A stretch of DNA of 64,000 bases from a virus. Both the position numbers and the translations under genes were made by a program. The notes beneath the pieces were generated by a model. It ran no database searches, was not told where the DNA came from, and worked only from the letters and a program-made list of their open reading frames with translations. Location of the stretch: positions 1 through 64,000 of IMG/VR virus record IMGVR_UViG_3300045988_043972. One strand, written 5' to 3'. Below, piece by piece: positions 6,747 to 57,199 of the stretch (position 1 is its first letter; each line of letters begins with the position of its first letter).

Positions 6747-7772
6747 TTAGGTTTTCTTCTTCTTACTTTTTGATATGTATCGCAATAGCTCTTTATGTTT
6801 AGTCATTTTACTAAATAAATTACGACCATTACAGTACTTAATCCAACCTATATAACTACATATTTTCTATTGATAAGTACTCTTGTCTAGGTTATCTTTT
6901 TTGTTCAATTTACTTACTCTTTTACAGAAATTCTTCTTAATATGTTTTCTTAATAGAGTGTGAGTATGAAATATCTTATACCCTACAAAATCTATTCCTC
7001 TATCGTCAACTTTAAATATTTGCCAGTTGTCTTTAAAGTTAATATTAAGTCTTTCTTCTAAGTACTACTTCATATCCTTAAATAACTATCTTAAATAGTC
7101 TTTGTCTCCATGAAGTATTACAATATCATCTGCGTATCTGAAATAGTATTTTATATGTTTTTCTTCTTTGATCCAGTGATCTAGATATGTTAAATATAGA
7201 TTAGCAAAGAATTGTGATAAGTAATTACCAATTGGTACTCCCTATGCAGAATCTATTATTTCATCTAATATAATTAATAATTTCTTATCTTTTACTTTTC
7301 TTCTTATTAGCTATTTTAATATATCATGATCTATTGAAGGATAAAATTTTCTGACATCTAACTTAAGACAGTATTTTGTATTGGCTTCATCTTTCAGTGC
7401 GAACTTAACATCTTTCAGAGCTTTATGTATACCACGATTTTTTATACAACTATAAGTTCCTTTAATGAAGGATGATACCCAAATAGGTTCCATAATATTC
7501 ATAATAGCATGATGTACTATTCTATCTGGATAGTATGGAAGCTTGAATATTTCTCTTTCTTTAGGTTCATATATCTTGAATATATAATATTCAGAAGTCT
7601 TATATTCACCATCTATTAATTTCTTCTATAGATCTAAAAGTAATTTTTCTCTATTCTTATCAAAATTAATTATTTCAGGTCTATGTTGTTTTTGTCTTCT
7701 AGCTCTTTTATCCGCTAGATATAAATTGTCTAAAGTTACTATTTTGTCAAATAAATTATTATATCTTTTCAT
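6747..7772 (-). CDS. DGR-type reverse transcriptase (341 aa, 6 in-frame TAG)
   Basis: Translation gives ..YEPKEREIFKLPYYPDRIVHHA.., SCIKNRGIHKA, LDVRKFYPSIDH, GVPIGNYLSQFFANLYL, YFRYADDIVIL, GIDFVGY. It lies immediately downstream of the TR. Confidence 0.9.
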
Positions 7773-7890
7773 CTGTAATCCATTACCGAGTTTTCACGAA
7801 AAAAGTTACTAACACAGTTAATTAGTATGTTATCTTTTACCAAGGGGTAAGGTCTCCCTCTACAGTCTCTTAATTTCTTTATTTGTTTAA

Positions 7891-44524: not shown

Positions 44525-45309
44525 CTAACAATAAGAGCCGACTTCGAGAAATCTCAGAGCCGGCTGTCTAAACTTATTGCTGTTTTTTATCTATTTATTG
44601 AAGTCTACCATCTTGTGAATTACTTAATCTGTATCTTTTAGGATATCTTTTATATAGAGTATCTTCTTTATATATAATATAATGTATAGTTCCTTTACTG
44701 GATATATTATATTTATTCATTAATTGAGTATATGTAAAACCAGATTCTCTATCTTTTCTTATATTTTCTACTATATCTGCAGAGTATTTTCTACGTATTT
44801 GACCACAATTAATAGATATCAGTTCTTTTGGAATATCGTGTTTATTGTCTTTAATAGTTCCTATTCCTATATTATCGTAAGAATTATCATATCTATCTCC
44901 ATTCAAGTGTCTTACTACTATTCCATCTTCATAAATTTTATCACCAAACTTTTGATATGCTTGTAACCTGTGAATCATACAATGTACCTTCTTATTTTCT
45001 CTTCTAGGTCCTATTCTTATATCGAAATTGTAGTAATCTCTCTTACGATCTTTTATCCTACCTTTTACTTGTACTCCATTTCTGTTTAAAAGAATTCCAT
45101 CTTTTGTGACAGTGTAACCCTTAATAAGGGCTAATTCTTCTGGTTTTATCATACTTCTTTAATTTTTAATTGGTCGGCGTAGTAGGAGTCAAACCCACCC
45201 GGTCGGCTTCAGAGGCCACACGGTTTTAGAGACCGTCCATGCAATCGTACATCATACGCCGAAATGTGCCGGGGAATACTTATTGTCCATCCCCGTTGGA
45301 CGTCTTGTA
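44525..45309 (-). mobile_element. Probable group I-type intron carrying an HNH homing-endonuclease ORF (boundaries approximate)
   Basis: G+C-rich structured segments flank the HNH ORF. Examples: CGGCGTA..TACGCCG long-range pair and ACGGT-CTCTAAA-ACCGT upstream; CAATAAG..CTTATTG enclosing a 12-bp hairpin downstream. The insert ends in G just before TACCCAGAAGG. Confidence 0.5.
44595..45152 (-). CDS. HNH homing endonuclease, 185 aa
   Basis: ..VHCMIHRLQAYQKFG..VVRHLNGDRYDNSYDNIGIGTIKDNKHD.. is an HNH_3-like pattern, followed by a C-terminal helix-turn-helix-like region. No TAG. Confidence 0.8.
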   Translation of the reverse strand: MIKPEELALIKGYTVTKDGILLNRNGVQVKGRIKDRKRDYYNFDIRIGPRRENKKVHCMIHRLQAYQKFGDKIYEDGIVVRHLNGDRYDNSYDNIGIGTIKDNKHDIPKELISINCGQIRRKYSADIVENIRKDRESGFTYTQLMNKYNISSKGTIHYIIYKEDTLYKRYPKRYRLSNSQDGRLQ

Positions 45310-51880: not shown

Positions 51881-52557
51881 CAACTAATATAATTTGATAA
51901 TAAGTTTTAGGTGTAAAATGCAAGAGATTTTCTGAAAAATTAAACTAACAATTACACGGTCTGTGAAGATAGTGTAATTTCACATGTATTATTACTTTAA
52001 TGCAACCAATGAGGGCCGTGACAAGTCGGTGGACAATGCAGAGTCAAAGTAATTAATTATTATTTATCCTTAATTTATATGCACAATAAATTATTGATAT
52101 TTAATAGTTAAATAATCCACGTGGTAGAGACATAGTTAGGTTCGCTATGTGTGCAACTCTTAGTAGTAACTAATCCAAGCAAGTAAGGAGAATAACCTCA
52201 ACCAAGAGAAAGTGTGAAATGGTGCTTGACAGTCTGATACTAACTGAACAATAAGTATCATTTAAAGTAAGAGAATAGCATAGTTATTGCTGCGCATAAC
52301 TGCAAATTATGAGAGCGAATATAATGCGCTTACTTTATTCTTGATTAAATTATAATAATATAATACCTCTCACGTAACCTCCGACTACTACATGTAAAAT
52401 CCGTGCTAATAAGGTATTGTAGTAGTCTTCTCTATCAATAAATACAACCTCATCGTGGTGATAGAGTCTAGTAACATGTTAAAAACAAAACCTTCCTAGT
52501 TTGCATGTGAAGCTAATGTATTTAAATTATTTAACAGTATTAACAAATTAAATATTA
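51881..52557 (+). ncRNA. ORF-free structured block A (candidate large ncRNA; strand inferred from context)
   Basis: No track ORF on either strand. Helices: GACTACTACA/TGTAGTAGTC (52383-92/52418-27), CTCTATCA/TGATAGAG (52430-37/52459-66), AAAGTAAG/CTTACTTT (52264-71/52329-36). Confidence 0.4.
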
Positions 52558-52659
52558 ATGACAACATTTTTCAATTTACTTCTATTTATAGGAGCAATTG
52601 CTGTTGTTTTCCTAGTAATACATGAAGGAATTGAATTATGGAAGGAAATCAACAAATAG
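52558..52659 (+). CDS. Possible 33-aa hydrophobic micro-protein (TAG stop)
   Basis: MTTFFNLLLFIGAIAVVFLVIHEGIELWKEINK. Confidence 0.3.
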   Translation: MTTFFNLLLFIGAIAVVFLVIHEGIELWKEINK

Positions 52660-52951
52660 TATGATAAGAAGGAGTAGTAATATTCTTAATTCAACAAGCA
52701 AGTTATTAGTAGTAATGGTAACTATAGTAGTTATTATTTATATACTAAAGAACTGGGAGCCTAAAGATCCATATGGTTTTGTGGATTTGCAAATGAGGTT
52801 TAAACATTATGTAGTATCTGATAAATATCAAGAAGATGAAGATACATATGTAATACGTTTAGTAAATCCTGTTACTGGAAATGAATACAAAGCATATATT
52901 GCAGATTATTTATATATGAATGTATACTTTGTAGGTGATACTATTAAATAA
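52622..52951 (+). CDS. Single-TM protein (109 aa; ATG 52661 is an alternative start)
   Basis: Track ORF with TM segment LLVVMVTIVVIIYIL. Confidence 0.55.
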   Translation: MKELNYGRKSTNSMIRRSSNILNSTSKLLVVMVTIVVIIYILKNWEPKDPYGFVDLQMRFKHYVVSDKYQEDEDTYVIRLVNPVTGNEYKAYIADYLYMNVYFVGDTIK

Positions 52952-52958
52952 TTATTAA

Positions 52959-52977
52959 TTTTAAAAACATTATCAAA
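52959..52977 (+). promoter_or_regulatory. Conserved leader motif copy 1 (TTTAAAAACATTATCAAA-ATG)
   Basis: ttttaaaaacattatcaaa abuts ATG 52978. The core AAACATTATCAAAA is also at 55968-55981 and 59651-59664. Confidence 0.45.
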
Positions 52978-53163
52978 ATGGGAAAAAAAAGATCTGCTAC
53001 AGTCCATACAGTGGACGGAGAAGAGTTAACATTCACATCGGTATCATTAGATTACTGCTGTGGAAATAGTAACGGAAGTTTAGTATCAATATGCGGTGAG
53101 AAGTTCGATATCATCGAGACTCCGTCCGTAGTATCTGAACTACTAGATGAACTGGAGGATTGA
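52978..53163 (+). CDS. Hypothetical protein, 61 aa
   Basis: Track ORF. Starts MGKK directly after the leader motif. Confidence 0.6.
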   Translation: MGKKRSATVHTVDGEELTFTSVSLDYCCGNSNGSLVSICGEKFDIIETPSVVSELLDELED

Positions 53164-53618
53164 GTATGGAAGATAATCAATATCCTGTAGTAAAAAAATC
53201 GTCTAATGGATGCTTTTGGACGATATTAGTAGTCATTGCATTAGCAATCGCTACTGGAGTAATAGTGTTTCTGTGTCATGAGCCTATTGCTAAGATTGTT
53301 ACGTCGGAAGACGAATCAGTTTGCATTGATACTGCAAAAGCAGTTGAACATGTACCAACGGTACAAGAAATTCTCAAATTTAGAGAAGACGTAAAAGAGG
53401 GAATGCGCATTGATAGTATATTTTTAGCAATGCCTGAAGCTGTTTTGATTGATATACTTATGACTCATGGTACATCATTGTCGAACAGCGACATTGTTTA
53501 TATATATGAATCAAACAAAGAGCATTTTAAAGATGTATTAAAAGGCGCAGTTATTCAACGCGATATAATTACCCCAATGGATTCTGTGAAGAATCCTCGT
53601 GATTCTCTAAGGCGTTAG
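53160..53618 (+). CDS. Single-TM protein, 152 aa (stops at TAG)
   Basis: Track ORF. The stop is TAG 53616-53618. Confidence 0.65.
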   Translation: MSMEDNQYPVVKKSSNGCFWTILVVIALAIATGVIVFLCHEPIAKIVTSEDESVCIDTAKAVEHVPTVQEILKFREDVKEGMRIDSIFLAMPEAVLIDILMTHGTSLSNSDIVYIYESNKEHFKDVLKGAVIQRDIITPMDSVKNPRDSLRR

Positions 53619-54101
53619 AGAGTAATAATTAACAACAATTTATTACAGTTTTTTGAAGCATTTTGCATAATAGAAATGGTTTAAAAATTTCGACTTAATA
53701 ACTAGTCAGTTCGTGAGAATAGACTAGTCTTCAGAAGATGACAAGCCTGTGGGGCGTAAATAGATATGTCTTGTCAAAAGAATTAGGCCTACATAATTCA
53801 ATTGAGCCCAAGGTGTAGGAACATATCTATGATCGTGCGGACGTTAAAATCAGGTGAGTTCTAAGATTTAGTTTGACAGCTATTTCTGTATGTACTCTGG
53901 AGTAATCCTAAAACATATGAGGGTTTAAATTAACATAGTAATATGTGTGAAGGTGATTTCTTTAATAACAGATGTACAATAGAGCGCTATTGTTTTATAG
54001 TATTAGTCGCGAACCCGTAGCACTGCGGTAAATTATTCTGTATATAGTGCTGTATACAGACGTCATCAATTTTACTAACAATTAAAACTTAAGCTTATGT
54101 A
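53619..54101 (+). ncRNA. ORF-free structured block B (candidate ncRNA)
   Basis: No track ORF. Helices: ACTAGTC/GACTAGT (53701-07/53722-28); ATAGATATGT/ACATATCTAT (53760-69/53821-30) enclosing CCTACA/TGTAGG; ACAATAG-agcg-CTATTGT near 53976-93. Confidence 0.4.
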
Positions 54102-54359
54102 ATGAAAACAAAAAAATCGGAATCCAAAAGGCAAATTACCAGTATAATATTGCATACTGGACATTTGTATGCTAACATTTTAGCATTAAATAAAATACTA
54201 GGTATACCTTTTAGTGAAGCTAGAAGATTAGCTAGAAGTAAACCAAGTGAAGAAATTCATCTATGTCCATACTTAGATCTTAATTCAAATATGTCTACTG
54301 ATGATATTAAGAATGAATTAGATGAGTATGAAATAGAAATAAAAATAATTAATCAATAA
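54102..54359 (+). CDS. Hypothetical protein, 85 aa
   Basis: Track ORF. Confidence 0.6.
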   Translation: MKTKKSESKRQITSIILHTGHLYANILALNKILGIPFSEARRLARSKPSEEIHLCPYLDLNSNMSTDDIKNELDEYEIEIKIINQ

Positions 54360-54361
54360 TT

Positions 54362-54832
54362 ATGAAAGCAATTGTAATTTTATTTGAAGGCGATTATGTA
54401 AGTAATGCTCGTAAAGATGTAACTATCCGTGACATTGCTAATGCTGTAACTCAACACATAAAAATAGAGTCAGACAGTTTAAAAATTGTTGATTTCGAAG
54501 ATGTTGATGTAGCTAAGATATTAGTATCAAAAGCAGAAACAATAACATCTAAGGAGCCAAATCTTGAAGAACTTACAACAATATTCTGTGATAATATTAT
54601 CACAAAAGTAGGTAATCCGGTAAACTTTAGCAATGAAAGTTTATTCAAGGTAGAGTTTGTAAAAAGATTCCTTAATGATGAGGATATCCGCAAACAAAAT
54701 ACAGATATGATTAAATATCTAATATCTGCTGGAAGACTACAGCCTAGTTGCAAAAAAGTTCTTGAGGCTAAACATCTTTCAAATATTCCATATTATTTGA
54801 AAGAAATCAACGGTATGTTAAAACTCTTTTAA
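54362..54832 (+). CDS. Hypothetical protein, 156 aa
   Basis: Track ORF starting 2 nt after the previous stop. Confidence 0.65.
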   Translation: MKAIVILFEGDYVSNARKDVTIRDIANAVTQHIKIESDSLKIVDFEDVDVAKILVSKAETITSKEPNLEELTTIFCDNIITKVGNPVNFSNESLFKVEFVKRFLNDEDIRKQNTDMIKYLISAGRLQPSCKKVLEAKHLSNIPYYLKEINGMLKLF

Positions 54833-54834
54833 TT

Positions 54835-54933
54835 ATGGGAAAGAATAAGGAGAAAGAAGTAAAAACTAAGACGGAATATAAAAAACGTCCTAAGCATAAG
54901 AAAATGGAACCTTATAATCGTAAAAAGGCATGA
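54835..54933 (+). CDS. Possible 32-aa Lys-rich micro-protein
   Basis: MGKNKEKEVKTKTEYKKRPKHKKMEPYNRKKA. Its TGA overlaps the next ATG (ATGA). Confidence 0.35.
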   Translation: MGKNKEKEVKTKTEYKKRPKHKKMEPYNRKKA

Positions 54934-55337
54934 TTGAATTAAGTAAAGAAAAACCGTATGAAGATGCATGCAAATTGCTAGGTCTTCGTCCTGTAGCTAA
55001 TTATAAAAGCTACAAATTAACAGATGAAACTAGGAACTTCATCAAGTTAGAAACTATTGCAAAAGCTTTGAATGAAGGCTGGAAACCTAAAGTAACAGAT
55101 CCAAAAGAAGTAAGATATTACATATGGGGCTGGAACTATACAGATAACCAAAAACCTTCGGGCTTGCTCTTTGTTGGTTCTGGCGATGGGCTCGGCCTTG
55201 CTGATGCTGATGTCGGTACTTCCTTGGAATTCAAAGACAGAGATACAGCAAAAGAATTTGCAAGAATATGTAAACCCATGATTGTCAAACATTTATTTGG
55301 TCGAGATGATCATGAAAACTTCAAATTCAATTTCTAA
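54930..55337 (+). CDS. DGR target 2: small cytoplasmic-looking variable protein, 135 aa
   Basis: Track ORF. ..RYYIWGWNYTDNQKPSGLLFVGSGDGLGLADADVGTSLEF.. parallels the VR1-encoded end of 8031..9272. No signal peptide or TM segment is visible. Confidence 0.8.
   Translation: MIELSKEKPYEDACKLLGLRPVANYKSYKLTDETRNFIKLETIAKALNEGWKPKVTDPKEVRYYIWGWNYTDNQKPSGLLFVGSGDGLGLADADVGTSLEFKDRDTAKEFARICKPMIVKHLFGRDDHENFKFNF
55157..55219 (+). repeat. DGR variable repeat VR2 (remote, opposite strand to TR)
   Basis: Gap-free alignment to the reverse complement of 7904-7966. By hand I count 17 mismatches in 63 nt, all at TR adenines; every non-A position is identical. Confidence 0.85.
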
Positions 55338-55464
55338 CGAATGCCCTACACGAGATAATATTATCAACTGTAGTGAATGTGATCTTGAGTGTAAACTCAG
55401 AATGGCAACGAATAACAAGCAAGAGGTTCCGCCAGAGCCTCTGCCCGCTGTTATATATTACTAA
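55306..55464 (+). CDS. Small Cys-containing protein (about 52 aa from ATG 55306)
   Basis: Track ORF 55282..55464. It overlaps the end of the VR2 gene. Confidence 0.4.
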   Translation: MIMKTSNSISNECPTRDNIINCSECDLECKLRMATNNKQEVPPEPLPAVIYY

Positions 55465-55501
55465 TTAAATTGTTAGTATGGTGGATTCCAATCAACCCGA
55501 A

Positions 55502-55647
55502 AGAACTGTAAATATACCAAAACCCTAATACATATTATTATGTAATGGCTATTCAACGGCAATCTGTAAATCTACAGATAAAGGGAGAGAAGGATAGGGG
55601 TTATCTGTAGAATAAGAGATAGGAATATACAGAACAGTTCTTTTTTT
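55502..55647 (+). ncRNA. Small structured RNA or terminator-capped element
   Basis: AGAACTGT/ACAGTTCT (55502-09/55634-41) closes the element and is followed by T7. An inner 11-bp hairpin TCTACAGATAA/TTATCTGTAGA (55571-81/55601-11) has a purine-rich loop. Confidence 0.4.
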
Positions 55648-55673
55648 AATTCTAAAACCAAATTATCAAAAAT

Positions 55674-55950
55674 ATGGGACAAAAAAAGAATTCAAGCTAA
55701 TCTTTACAAAAGATATGGAAAAGAAGAAGCAGAAAAAAGAATTATTGCTCATCGAAAAAAAGCAGTAAAGAATTTTGCTAAAGAAATTCTTTATCTTCAG
55801 ATTATCGCTGAAAATAAAACAAAAAACCAAACTGCTTATGACAATCGTAAGCTTGTTAAGGCAGGAGAACGTGAATCATGTAAACAACGCAAGAGACGTC
55901 TTCGTAAAGAATATCTTGCGAAAAAAAGTGAGACACTTAGAGTTAATTAA
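55674..55950 (+). CDS. Basic helical protein ORF interrupted at an A7 run (about 91 aa if one A is skipped)
   Basis: ATG GGA CAA AAA AAG AAT TCA AGC TAA stops after 8 codons. The +1-shifted frame is open to TAA 55948-55950 but has no ATG of its own. The leader resembles the conserved motif. Confidence 0.45.
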
Positions 55951-55963
55951 TAATAGTATCAAT

Positions 55964-55983
55964 CTTTAAACATTATCAAAAAA
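55964..55983 (+). promoter_or_regulatory. Conserved leader motif copy 2
   Basis: ctttaaacattatcaaaaaa abuts ATG 55984. Confidence 0.45.
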
Positions 55984-56448
55984 ATGGCAAAAGAAGAAGT
56001 AAAAGTAGCTGATATTACAAAAGTATCAGCAGAGAACATTGAAGAAGTAATCAACAATGGCTCAACTGTAACAGAAGATGTTGCAAAAGCTGCTGCTGAA
56101 AAGATTGCAAAACAGCGTAAAGAGGAGCTCACGGAACGTCATATTGACGTAACTTTGAAGAGTGAGTATACTCGTCTTGCAACTTATTTGAGTATGAAAA
56201 AGACCGACAAGGAAAAAGAGGTCAAACTCAATTACTTGAAGAAGTTCTCTGAAAAAGATGACAAACTGCGTAACGGCGGCATCACTATTGAAGACTACCT
56301 GAAGGATTGTAAAGAGCTCTACAAAGAGGCTAACAATCTTCTTCGTGAAGTTGACAAATGGTATCAGGAACAGCAAAACAAATTGCTTAACCAGTACCCG
56401 AAAGCCCGTTATGATTGGAGATGGGATGGACAATTGTTGTCCCTTTAA
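55984..56448 (+). CDS. Hypothetical K/E-rich protein, 154 aa
   Basis: Track ORF. Confidence 0.65.
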   Translation: MAKEEVKVADITKVSAENIEEVINNGSTVTEDVAKAAAEKIAKQRKEELTERHIDVTLKSEYTRLATYLSMKKTDKEKEVKLNYLKKFSEKDDKLRNGGITIEDYLKDCKELYKEANNLLREVDKWYQEQQNKLLNQYPKARYDWRWDGQLLSL

Positions 56449-56820
56449 TTCTCCGCGCATAGTCCAGGTATAGTGTTTTAGCAGTAGAAAATACTGACTA
56501 TATAACCTAACTAGAGAAAGTAGCTAATAGGTGGTGATGACATTTTATGTGCTAAGTACCAGAAGATGCAGCTCATGCGTGAATTAACACGCATACAACA
56601 AGTGTAAGGCGTAGAAATACGACCGATGCCAGAGTAGGACAATATGACAACGTGCCACTGATCATGTGCCTAAGATCGTGAGGATGTATTAATAAATTGC
56701 GCAATATATAAATACAGATTCTATACTCAATGAGTATATTATGCAATAGCATTCTTATGATATCAAATCGGCATATTGGAATAGTGCGATGCTAGACATC
56801 ATGCCGTATAGAGGCTGAAA
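56449..56820 (+). ncRNA. ORF-free structured block C, 5' part
   Basis: No credible ORF, and it contains short inverted repeats. Shares the 11-mer CCAGAGTAGGA with block D (near 63124). Confidence 0.35.
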
Positions 56821-57199
56821 GGTATTCTATACTTCCAAGACAAGTTATCAAGGCATTAGAAAATAATTTAAAAAAGACCAAAGACTATGTAGGTTTGGTC
56901 GCCTACATAGTCACAATTGACTGTTAGGTCTATTTAAGCCCGAGCAAGACGAGCTTTCGCAGGCTCCACCTCCACTAATAAAGAAATATTAAAAAGGGGG
57001 TGTATATGTATTGATTGGCGGAAACTAAGTAGAATAGGTCAATAAGCAGATAACTGGCAATACAAGTTATGTAACAGACTATACACGTTTAGTAGCGTAA
57101 GATAGTCTAACGGCTAAGCTAATGTCGTAGAAAGCTGGAGGTATATCAGGCTAGATCAGACGTAAGGGCTGTTGGAGGGTTCGATTCCCTCTAATACCA
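56821..57199 (+). ncRNA. About 380-nt RNA whose ends form a tRNA-like acceptor/T-arm domain (tmRNA-like topology, not a canonical tRNA or tmRNA)
   Basis: T-arm GAGGG-TTCGATT-CCCTC (57175-91). TAATACC (57192-98) pairs with GGTATTC (56821-27), 6 of 7. TATACTTCCA (56828-37) pairs with TGGAGGTATA (57136-45), 10 bp including one G-U. Confidence 0.5.

Follow-up and report, generated by a model that had tools for sequence, protein, structure and literature searches.

The window analysed here is a 64,000-nucleotide (nt) stretch from a crAss-like gut phage (positions 1 to 64,000 of the IMG/VR virus record IMGVR_UViG_3300045988_043972). Its interval 56821-57199 probably comprises a circularly permuted (two-piece) transfer-messenger RNA (tmRNA) gene and, directly after it, a truncated transfer RNA (tRNA)-like element. 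The presence of the two-piece gene is very likely, and this divergent copy is probably functional; for the proposal that the terminal 3' element is a cleaved processing handle, the case is evenly balanced. The RNA is of a known kind, in a divergent copy that tools have overlooked, plus a structural appendage that is new to a modest degree. Both two-piece and phage-borne tmRNAs have been described before, and relatives of the window gene are annotated in RefSeq. In the literature searched, no paper dealt with the two-piece tmRNAs of crAss-like phages or with the tRNA-like cassettes at their 3' ends, and the supplement of the tmRNA database paper, searched for phage or crAss entries, held none. 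An earlier note on this DNA had read the interval differently, as one RNA of about 380 nt closed by long-range pairing of its ends and possibly a new tRNA mimic, resembling tmRNA but without tmRNA identity elements.

Organization of the two-piece gene

The Rfam model of permuted tmRNA (RF04321, tmRNA_permuted) matches 56916-57100 with 34.4 bits (E=3.6e-5). The acceptor piece comes first, then the intervening sequence and the coding piece, and the two pieces can pair through four P2 helices and a 7-base-pair (bp) acceptor stem (Table 1). The permutation is evident from the coordinates, as the T arm and the acceptor 3' strand (56951-73) lie upstream of both the acceptor 5' strand (56996-57002) and the tag open reading frame (ORF; 57056-57100). 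In the acceptor stem, GGGGGUG/CACCUCC, the pairs are G1-C, G2-C, G3.U70, G4-C, G5-C, U6-A and G7-C, and the inner tRNA-like domain thus carries the alanine identity pair G3:U70. CCA is not encoded after the discriminator A56974; A-C-U is found there instead. Helices P2a-d, which join the two pieces, are predicted by RNAalifold, and P2c/d covary, with eight pairs showing compensatory change.

The tag frame reads GGC AAU ACA AGU UAU GUA ACA GAC UAU ACA CGU UUA GUA GCG UAA, that is, (A)GNTSYVTDYTRLVA and a stop; its resume codon is GGC (Gly) and it ends in ..RLVA-TAA. The earlier note had reported neither a G3:U70 pair nor a tag. Taken over the entire interval neither statement holds, although the first describes the terminal element, in which position 3:70 is U:A. 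The coding piece also holds a candidate pseudoknot of 4 bp (57117-20/57133-36), with one U-A to C-G change in two sequences; no equivalent of PK1 was found.

Table 1. Features of the tmRNA interval and of other RNA elements in the window.
Feature	Coordinates	Strand	Description or evidence
tmRNA acceptor piece	56916..56974	+	RF04321 alignment; 5' boundary at ATTGAC kept in all homologs; covariation of P2c/d, T-arm, acceptor
P2 5' strands in acceptor piece	56916-21, 56929-32, 56940-47	+	ATTGAC, TCTA, CCG/CAA, respectively
Inner T-arm	56951-66	+	GAGCU-UUCGCA-GGCUC; 6-nt non-canonical loop
Acceptor 3' strand	56967-73	+	CACCUCC, then discriminator A56974
Intervening sequence	56975..56995 (21 nt)	+	CTAATAAAGAAATATTAAAAA
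tmRNA coding piece	56996..57139 (3' end ~57139)	+
Acceptor 5' strand	56996-57002	+	GGGGGUG; G3 pairs with U70
P2 3' strands	57038-43	+	..GUCAAU
Hairpin presenting resume codon	57050-55/57066-71	+	AUAACU/AGUUAU
Tag ORF, 14 codons	57056..57100	+	GNTSYVTDYTRLVA, then stop; ARAGORN at relaxed threshold; codon-position pattern
Post-tag hairpin	57110-14/57124-28	+	ACGGC/GUCGU
Coding-piece tail	3' end of coding piece	+	AAAGCUGGA
Local mini-tRNA, type A cassette	57140..57199 (60 nt)	+	Pairing and covariation across 11 variants
5-bp acceptor	57140-44/57194-98	+	GGUAU/AUACC
Connector arm	57147-71	+
7-bp T stem	57173-79/57187-93	+	UGGAGGG/CCCUCUA
T loop	57180-86	+	UUCGAUU; discriminator A57199
Local hairpin	56806..56832 (arms 56806-12/56826-32)	+	GUAUAGA/UCUAUAC; compensatory variant; outside tmRNA
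GACCAAA and 11-bp hairpin	56876..56912	+	Arms GACUAUGUAGG/CCUACAUAGUC; fold z-score -6.3; arms covary across loci
RAGATH-7	52051-52260	+	Rfam
Hatchet ribozyme	53727-53855	+	Rfam
RAGATH-9	55488-55644	+	Rfam
RAGATH-20	56576-56677	+	Rfam
RT-17 RNA	7766-7854	-	Rfam, 40.8 bits, just at gathering score (40.4)
Suppressor tRNA(CUA)	45171-45261	-	ARAGORN 'tRNA-Pyl (cta)'

Comparative evidence

Matches to the window region are found in crAss-like phages (Crassvirales, Suoliviridae; cr113_1, cr60_1, cr52_1 and others). In RefSeq the syntenic site is annotated as 'transfer-messenger RNA, SsrA' in several relatives, including cr60_1, cr52_1 and cr115_1. Loci were collected through a conserved 21-mer of the coding piece, which yielded 113 IMG/VR loci and four contigs of metagenome-assembled genomes (MAGs); individual loci are cited below by L numbers. 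The same tmRNA gene is present at about 110 homologous loci of crAss-like phages (Suoliviridae). At default settings ARAGORN calls a permuted tmRNA in some 75 of the 117 loci, with tags GNTSYV(T/M)DYTRL(V/A)A or GNTSYIMNYSRIAA, and the RF04321 gathering score is passed by L011 (56.5), L007 (55.8), L031 (52.5) and L012 (51.5), as well as by L020, L059 and L022. Seven variants of the acceptor stem occur, every one perfectly complementary and retaining G1-C, G2-C, G3.U and G4-C.

For the covariation analysis, 27 diverse sequences were aligned with the spacer removed and the structure of the tRNA-like domain and the coding piece imposed. In this alignment 97.4% of cells are paired, and compensatory change is seen at 17 pairs, where slid controls give 6-9. 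The score for covariation is 0.249 versus 0.03-0.07, and none of 500 shuffles (0/500) reaches the observed values. Covariation strongly supports the tRNA-like domain. The tag frame has a coding signature of its own: variable sites fall on the three codon positions in 5, 4 and 10 of 14 cases, and the ratio of synonymous to non-synonymous changes is 563/983 in this frame versus 94/1566 and 318/1428 in the other two, the synonymous excess being confined to the tag frame. The tags stop at TGA (72) or TAA (44) and never at TAG (0).

Conservation of the tmRNA starts exactly at ATTGAC (56916); upstream of it, the sequence of homologs is unrelated and consists of ORF ends or of other RNA modules. The intervening sequence ranges from about 16 nt to about 1000 nt among homologs (segment lengths 137-1089), and some of these sequences contain an endonuclease ORF. 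In cr113_1 (L002, 1700-2225, minus strand) and cr56_1, an 'endonuclease' coding sequence is annotated at this site on the opposite strand. The annotated coding sequence overlaps the acceptor piece, and reading it requires passing an in-frame stop. In cr113_1, the one whose sequence was inspected, the ORF has Cys-rich and ..SLDRID..GY..GN.. motifs; a Pfam scan of this ORF returned no family.

A few carriers have bacterial labels. Three contigs of about 99-100 kilobases (kb), L122, L123 and L125, are binned in Bacilli and Sphaerochaeta MAGs, and L124 is a 2.7-kb contig of a Clostridium MAG. The contigs of about 100 kb are probably whole crAss-like phage genomes that were misbinned.

The terminal tRNA-like element

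The earlier note was right that a T arm, GAGGG-TTCGATT-CCCTC (57175-91), is followed by TAATACC-A (57192-99), and that the sequence upstream of it offers neither a D arm nor an anticodon arm. The element lacks both a D stem and an anticodon arm, and neither ARAGORN nor the Rfam tRNA model gives a match at 57140-57199. What it does have is a local partner for its 3' strand. Among 11 type-A variants (the type found in the window) the acceptor is 100% paired, with position 1:72 being G-C, A-U or G.U and position 3:70 U-A or C-G. This local pairing and its covariation identify GGUAU at 57140-44 as the real 5' partner of TAATACC. Two pairs of the type-A T stem also covary, and none do in slid controls. 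The acceptor/T-arm stack (5+7 bp) thus shows covariation independently of the remainder of the element. For the connector arm (57147-71) comparative support is weak, one compensatory pair being set against four broken cells.

Downstream of the invariant tail ..AAAGCUGGAG, homologs carry at least six unrelated, interchangeable tRNA-like cassettes. These are type A (59-60 nt, with a 5-bp acceptor, a 25-nt connector and a 7-bp T stem), type G (a mini-helix of 46 nt), type B (79-80 nt, with a D arm and without a real anticodon stem), type C (75 nt, with a D arm and a 6-nt anticodon loop), type D (78-83 nt, with a D arm and an odd loop) and type E (with a large internal insert). In every complete locus the conserved tail GCUGGAG supplies the AG or G with which the cassette begins, and each ends in the order T arm, acceptor 3' strand, A. 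Acceptor and T arms are intact in all types, and anticodon arms are absent or aberrant in all. A scan of the window for further T-arm handles beside other non-coding RNAs (ncRNAs) found none.

Classically, the minimal substrate of RNase P is a stack of acceptor and T arm that carries a single-stranded 3' tail. Since only the acceptor and T arms, which make up that substrate, stay intact across swapped cassettes, the best inference, as yet unproven, is that RNase P (tRNA processing) uses the terminal element as a handle by which the coding piece is given its 3' end. A processing handle was among the roles that the earlier note had suggested, for its single RNA.

Two further features of the cassette region were seen. 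Type C cassettes (L012, L020, L036, L049, L077, L090 and others) have perfect acceptor, D and T arms and a 6-nt loop NUNUUA, whose variable letters differ among close relatives and for which ARAGORN gives 2-nt anticodons. Among L006, L008, L112, L116 and L070, some have insertions of about 50-75 nt splitting the conserved tail (AAAGC^UGGAG) and others have the whole post-tag hairpin region swapped for a module of about 130 nt; the terminal tRNA-like cassette is retained in all five.

Alternative explanations

Several observations weigh against the reading of the interval as a functional two-piece tmRNA with a 3' handle. The window copy scores 34.4 bits, below the RF04321 gathering score of 47, and ARAGORN at default does not call it, the tRNA(CUA) at 45171-45261 being its sole call. 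Its T loop has 6 nt (UUCGCA), without an equivalent of A58, instead of the canonical 7-nt UUCRANY; most homologs have UUCGACU. When the loop was repaired in silico ARAGORN still failed to detect the window gene, so the T loop alone is not the cause of the miss. The window allele of the tRNA-like domain is a singleton, found nowhere else in the collections searched. There is one weak pseudoknot candidate, compared with up to four in classical tmRNAs. The single-sequence minimum free energy fold of 56821-57199 includes the closing helices of the earlier note. Finally, we infer the processing sites, the charging and the fate of the 3' mini-tRNA throughout.

As to the searches themselves, an exact 23-mer of the window allele had 0 matches in metagenome contigs. 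A 19-mer had four, and the one examined (L118) falls within unrelated sequence that is apparently protein-coding. The standard tmRNA model RF00023 matches the 17-nt T arm only (14.5 bits). Run with intron options and relaxed thresholds, ARAGORN calls the window tmRNA only at -ps90. The structure it then draws, which joins the outer T arm to a chance 5' partner (GGCATTA at 56852), was rejected, the tag being correct; a 'tRNA-Tyr i(38,641)' (a tRNA with a long intron) called at the same setting was rejected as a low-threshold artefact.

The short T loop, the sub-threshold Rfam and ARAGORN results and the singleton allele would all be expected if the window copy were a pseudogene, created by a T-loop deletion in a family that is otherwise functional. 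This is unlikely. The acceptor differs from that of every other allele on both strands, yet pairs perfectly and keeps G3.U70, and the P2 helices and the tag ORF are intact. Moreover, an allele class of 11 loci (the L007 class) has a fully non-canonical T loop, GGCAGUA, but is conserved and passes the Rfam gathering score; a canonical T loop thus seems dispensable in this tmRNA family. The single RNA of about 380 nt (56821-57199) fares far worse. Its two helices do exist: GGTATTC (56821-27) can form six of seven pairs with TAATACC (57192-98), and TATACTTCCA (56828-37) can form 10 bp, one of them G.U, with TGGAGGTATA (57136-45). Both appear in the minimum free energy fold (z -3.65 for the whole fold), and both are possible in L074 and L021, which share both modules with the window. 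However, they are at chance level. The 475 nt upstream contain three 7-mers that pair with TAATACC at 6/7 or better (at 56821, 56852 and 57007), against a mean of 2.8 in dinucleotide shuffles, and a helix of at least 10 bp joins the two flanks in 24% of shuffles (P=0.24). Nor is either helix conserved or covarying in relatives, a check that the earlier note had itself proposed. The upstream module, with GGTATTCTATACTTCCA, is missing from most homologs and, in the subset that has it, is separated from the tmRNA core by 191-937 nt; where it is constant, the 3' acceptor strand varies (TCTTACT, TTGCT, TAATACC, TAATGCC), each version being paired with a local 5' strand. The supposed 5' strands (56821-37) in fact overlap the loop and the 3' arm of a covarying local hairpin (56806-32), TATAC being in that arm, and five loci (L028, L036, L051, L082 and L096) have its compensatory variant GTATAGT/ACTATAC. 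The 17-bp stack of 56821-37 with 57136-98 therefore fails the tests of chance, conservation and covariation, and a complete tmRNA with its own identity elements lies inside the interval. The comparative data have largely refuted the single RNA, to which we give almost no credence, and a new tRNA mimic is unsupported. The likeness to tmRNA was real, but it belongs to an internal, circularly permuted gene, not to an architecture closed at the ends of the interval.

Two other explanations concern the 3' element. It might be kept on the mature coding piece, as a second tRNA-like domain or as a structured cap that keeps exonucleases off. In all loci it directly adjoins the conserved tail, and the tail may pair with the loop of the post-tag hairpin up to the junction; keeping the coding RNA of a two-piece tmRNA stable against 3' exonucleases is a recognised problem in Caulobacter. 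We nevertheless think retention unlikely: the stack is of the minimal RNase P substrate type, and cassettes of types B-D, with a full 7-bp acceptor and a D arm (31.5 bits with the Rfam tRNA model in L001), are expected to be processed like tRNAs. Less likely still, the element would be a decaying tRNA gene, a neutral remnant that lies next to the tmRNA by chance. Degenerate or deleted anticodon arms (6-nt loops, no stem, a large insert) and the swapping of cassettes among close relatives would fit such decay. Every complete locus has some cassette at the same junction, however, the type-A acceptor and T stems are maintained by compensatory changes of which slid controls show none, and decay is limited to parts dispensable for RNase P and RNase Z. 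A processing handle remains the better account of the element.

Neighbouring RNA modules and codon recoding

The tmRNA gene ends an ncRNA-rich stretch (52051-56677, plus strand) in which ncRNAs are interleaved with small ORFs, and the same ncRNA families flank the tmRNA in homologous loci. Nearer the gene, the module at 56806-56860 (plus strand) consists of the local hairpin followed by ..UAUCAAGGCAUU. The module at 56876-56912 is present in about half of the homologs. The invariant loop of its hairpin, UUUGGUCG, is complementary to GACCAAA, making the module capable, as judged by its sequence, of forming a pseudoknot or a switch; its minus strand gives a hit in a scan for intrinsic terminators. 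The loop region TAGGTTTG resembles the Bacteroidota -7 promoter motif, TAnnTTTG. A sigma-70 promoter scan gave 11 sites versus 8.2 expected, not above background, with a model unsuited to Bacteroidota or phage polymerases.

TAG appears to be a sense codon in this phage, its reassignment being strong in the large genes of the window. Under code 11, 0.48 of the window lies in stop-free stretches of at least 150 codons; recoding TAG raises this fraction to 0.78, with 0.9-1.0 in blocks over 1-44 kb. The window also encodes the suppressor tRNA(CUA).

Comparison with known systems

Two-piece tmRNAs are known in Alphaproteobacteria, some Betaproteobacteria and Cyanobacteria (RF04321, formerly RF01849-51; PMC11915505). 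The window gene shares with them the gene order, a tRNA-like domain rebuilt from two RNAs, G3:U70 and a tag ending of the hydrophobic-Ala-Ala type, and processing by tRNA enzymes is expected in both. It differs in being phage-encoded, in its small size (about 205 nt when mature), in having at most one small pseudoknot, in its GGC (Gly) resume codon and, in the window allele, in its non-canonical T loop. The phage intervening sequence is also hypervariable, and a tRNA-like cassette is fused at the 3' end. The Gly resume codon parallels the native Bacteroides tag, GETNYALAA (bioRxiv 10.1101/2025.03.18.644028).

The RefSeq tmRNAs of cr60_1, cr52_1, cr115_1, cr125_1 and cr114_1 are members of the same family. 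They are syntenic, have coding pieces 80-95% identical to that of the window and belong to the same tag family. Unlike them, the window gene has the acceptor stem CACCUCC/GGGGGUG, a 6-nt T loop and a 21-nt spacer, and standard tools miss it.

As for the terminal element, a 12-bp acceptor/T-arm stack ending a longer non-coding RNA is also found in MALAT1 mascRNA, in mitochondrial tRNA punctuation and in RNase P mini-helix substrates, and the anticodon arm is dispensable in mini-helix systems as it is in the window element. There is no sequence homology to mascRNA (Rfam mascRNA E=6.9, noise), the setting is bacterial or phage, and cleavage in the window is only predicted. With canonical tRNA (RF00005) the element shares a T arm with UUCGAUU, an acceptor stem and a discriminator A, and sister cassettes in relatives reach the RF00005 gathering score (L001, 31.5 bits). 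It departs from the cloverleaf in lacking a D stem and an anticodon arm and in having an acceptor of 5 bp rather than 7.

Proposed mechanism and implications

By analogy with established tmRNA and tRNA biology, host RNase P would cut 5' of G56996 (56995/56996), the 3' end past A56974 would be trimmed and CCA added, and the intervening sequence 56975-56995 is predicted to be removed in processing. AlaRS would charge the tRNA-like domain through G3:U70, and SmpB would bring the charged domain to stalled ribosomes for trans-translation. Translation would resume at GGC, adding the degradation tag A-GNTSYVTDYTRLVA, and tagged proteins would carry C-terminal ...AGNTSYVTDYTRLVA. At the other end, RNase P may recognise the 3' mini-tRNA and cut at 57139/57140, thereby fixing where the coding piece ends on its 3' side.

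The TAG recoding suggests a link to a need for extra ribosome rescue. Once suppression is on, host mRNAs ending in TAG would be read through to their 3' ends, where ribosomes would stall. The phage tmRNA, matured via its minimal, exchangeable tRNA-like handle, would rescue them, and the 15-residue phage-specific tag would mark the read-through products. That the tmRNA and its 3' handle form part of such a stop-codon-recoding lifestyle is a speculative idea that we hold to be rather improbable. In another version of it, the 60-nt mini-tRNA, once released, might have a function of its own as a small RNA. The co-occurrence of TAG recoding and a tmRNA suggests that code switching and ribosome rescue may be connected, which can be put to the test.

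What seemed an exotic tRNA mimic thus becomes an identifiable gene, in a group of phages that are among the most abundant viruses of the human gut. Standard tools under-call phage tmRNAs, as ARAGORN misses both the window allele and the 11-locus class with a non-canonical T loop. If the MAG contigs are indeed misbinned, tmRNA databases may also list phage tmRNAs under the names of bacteria. With the exchangeable cassettes, nature has in effect tested which parts the processing machinery requires: anticodon arms degenerate, and the acceptor and T arms are preserved.

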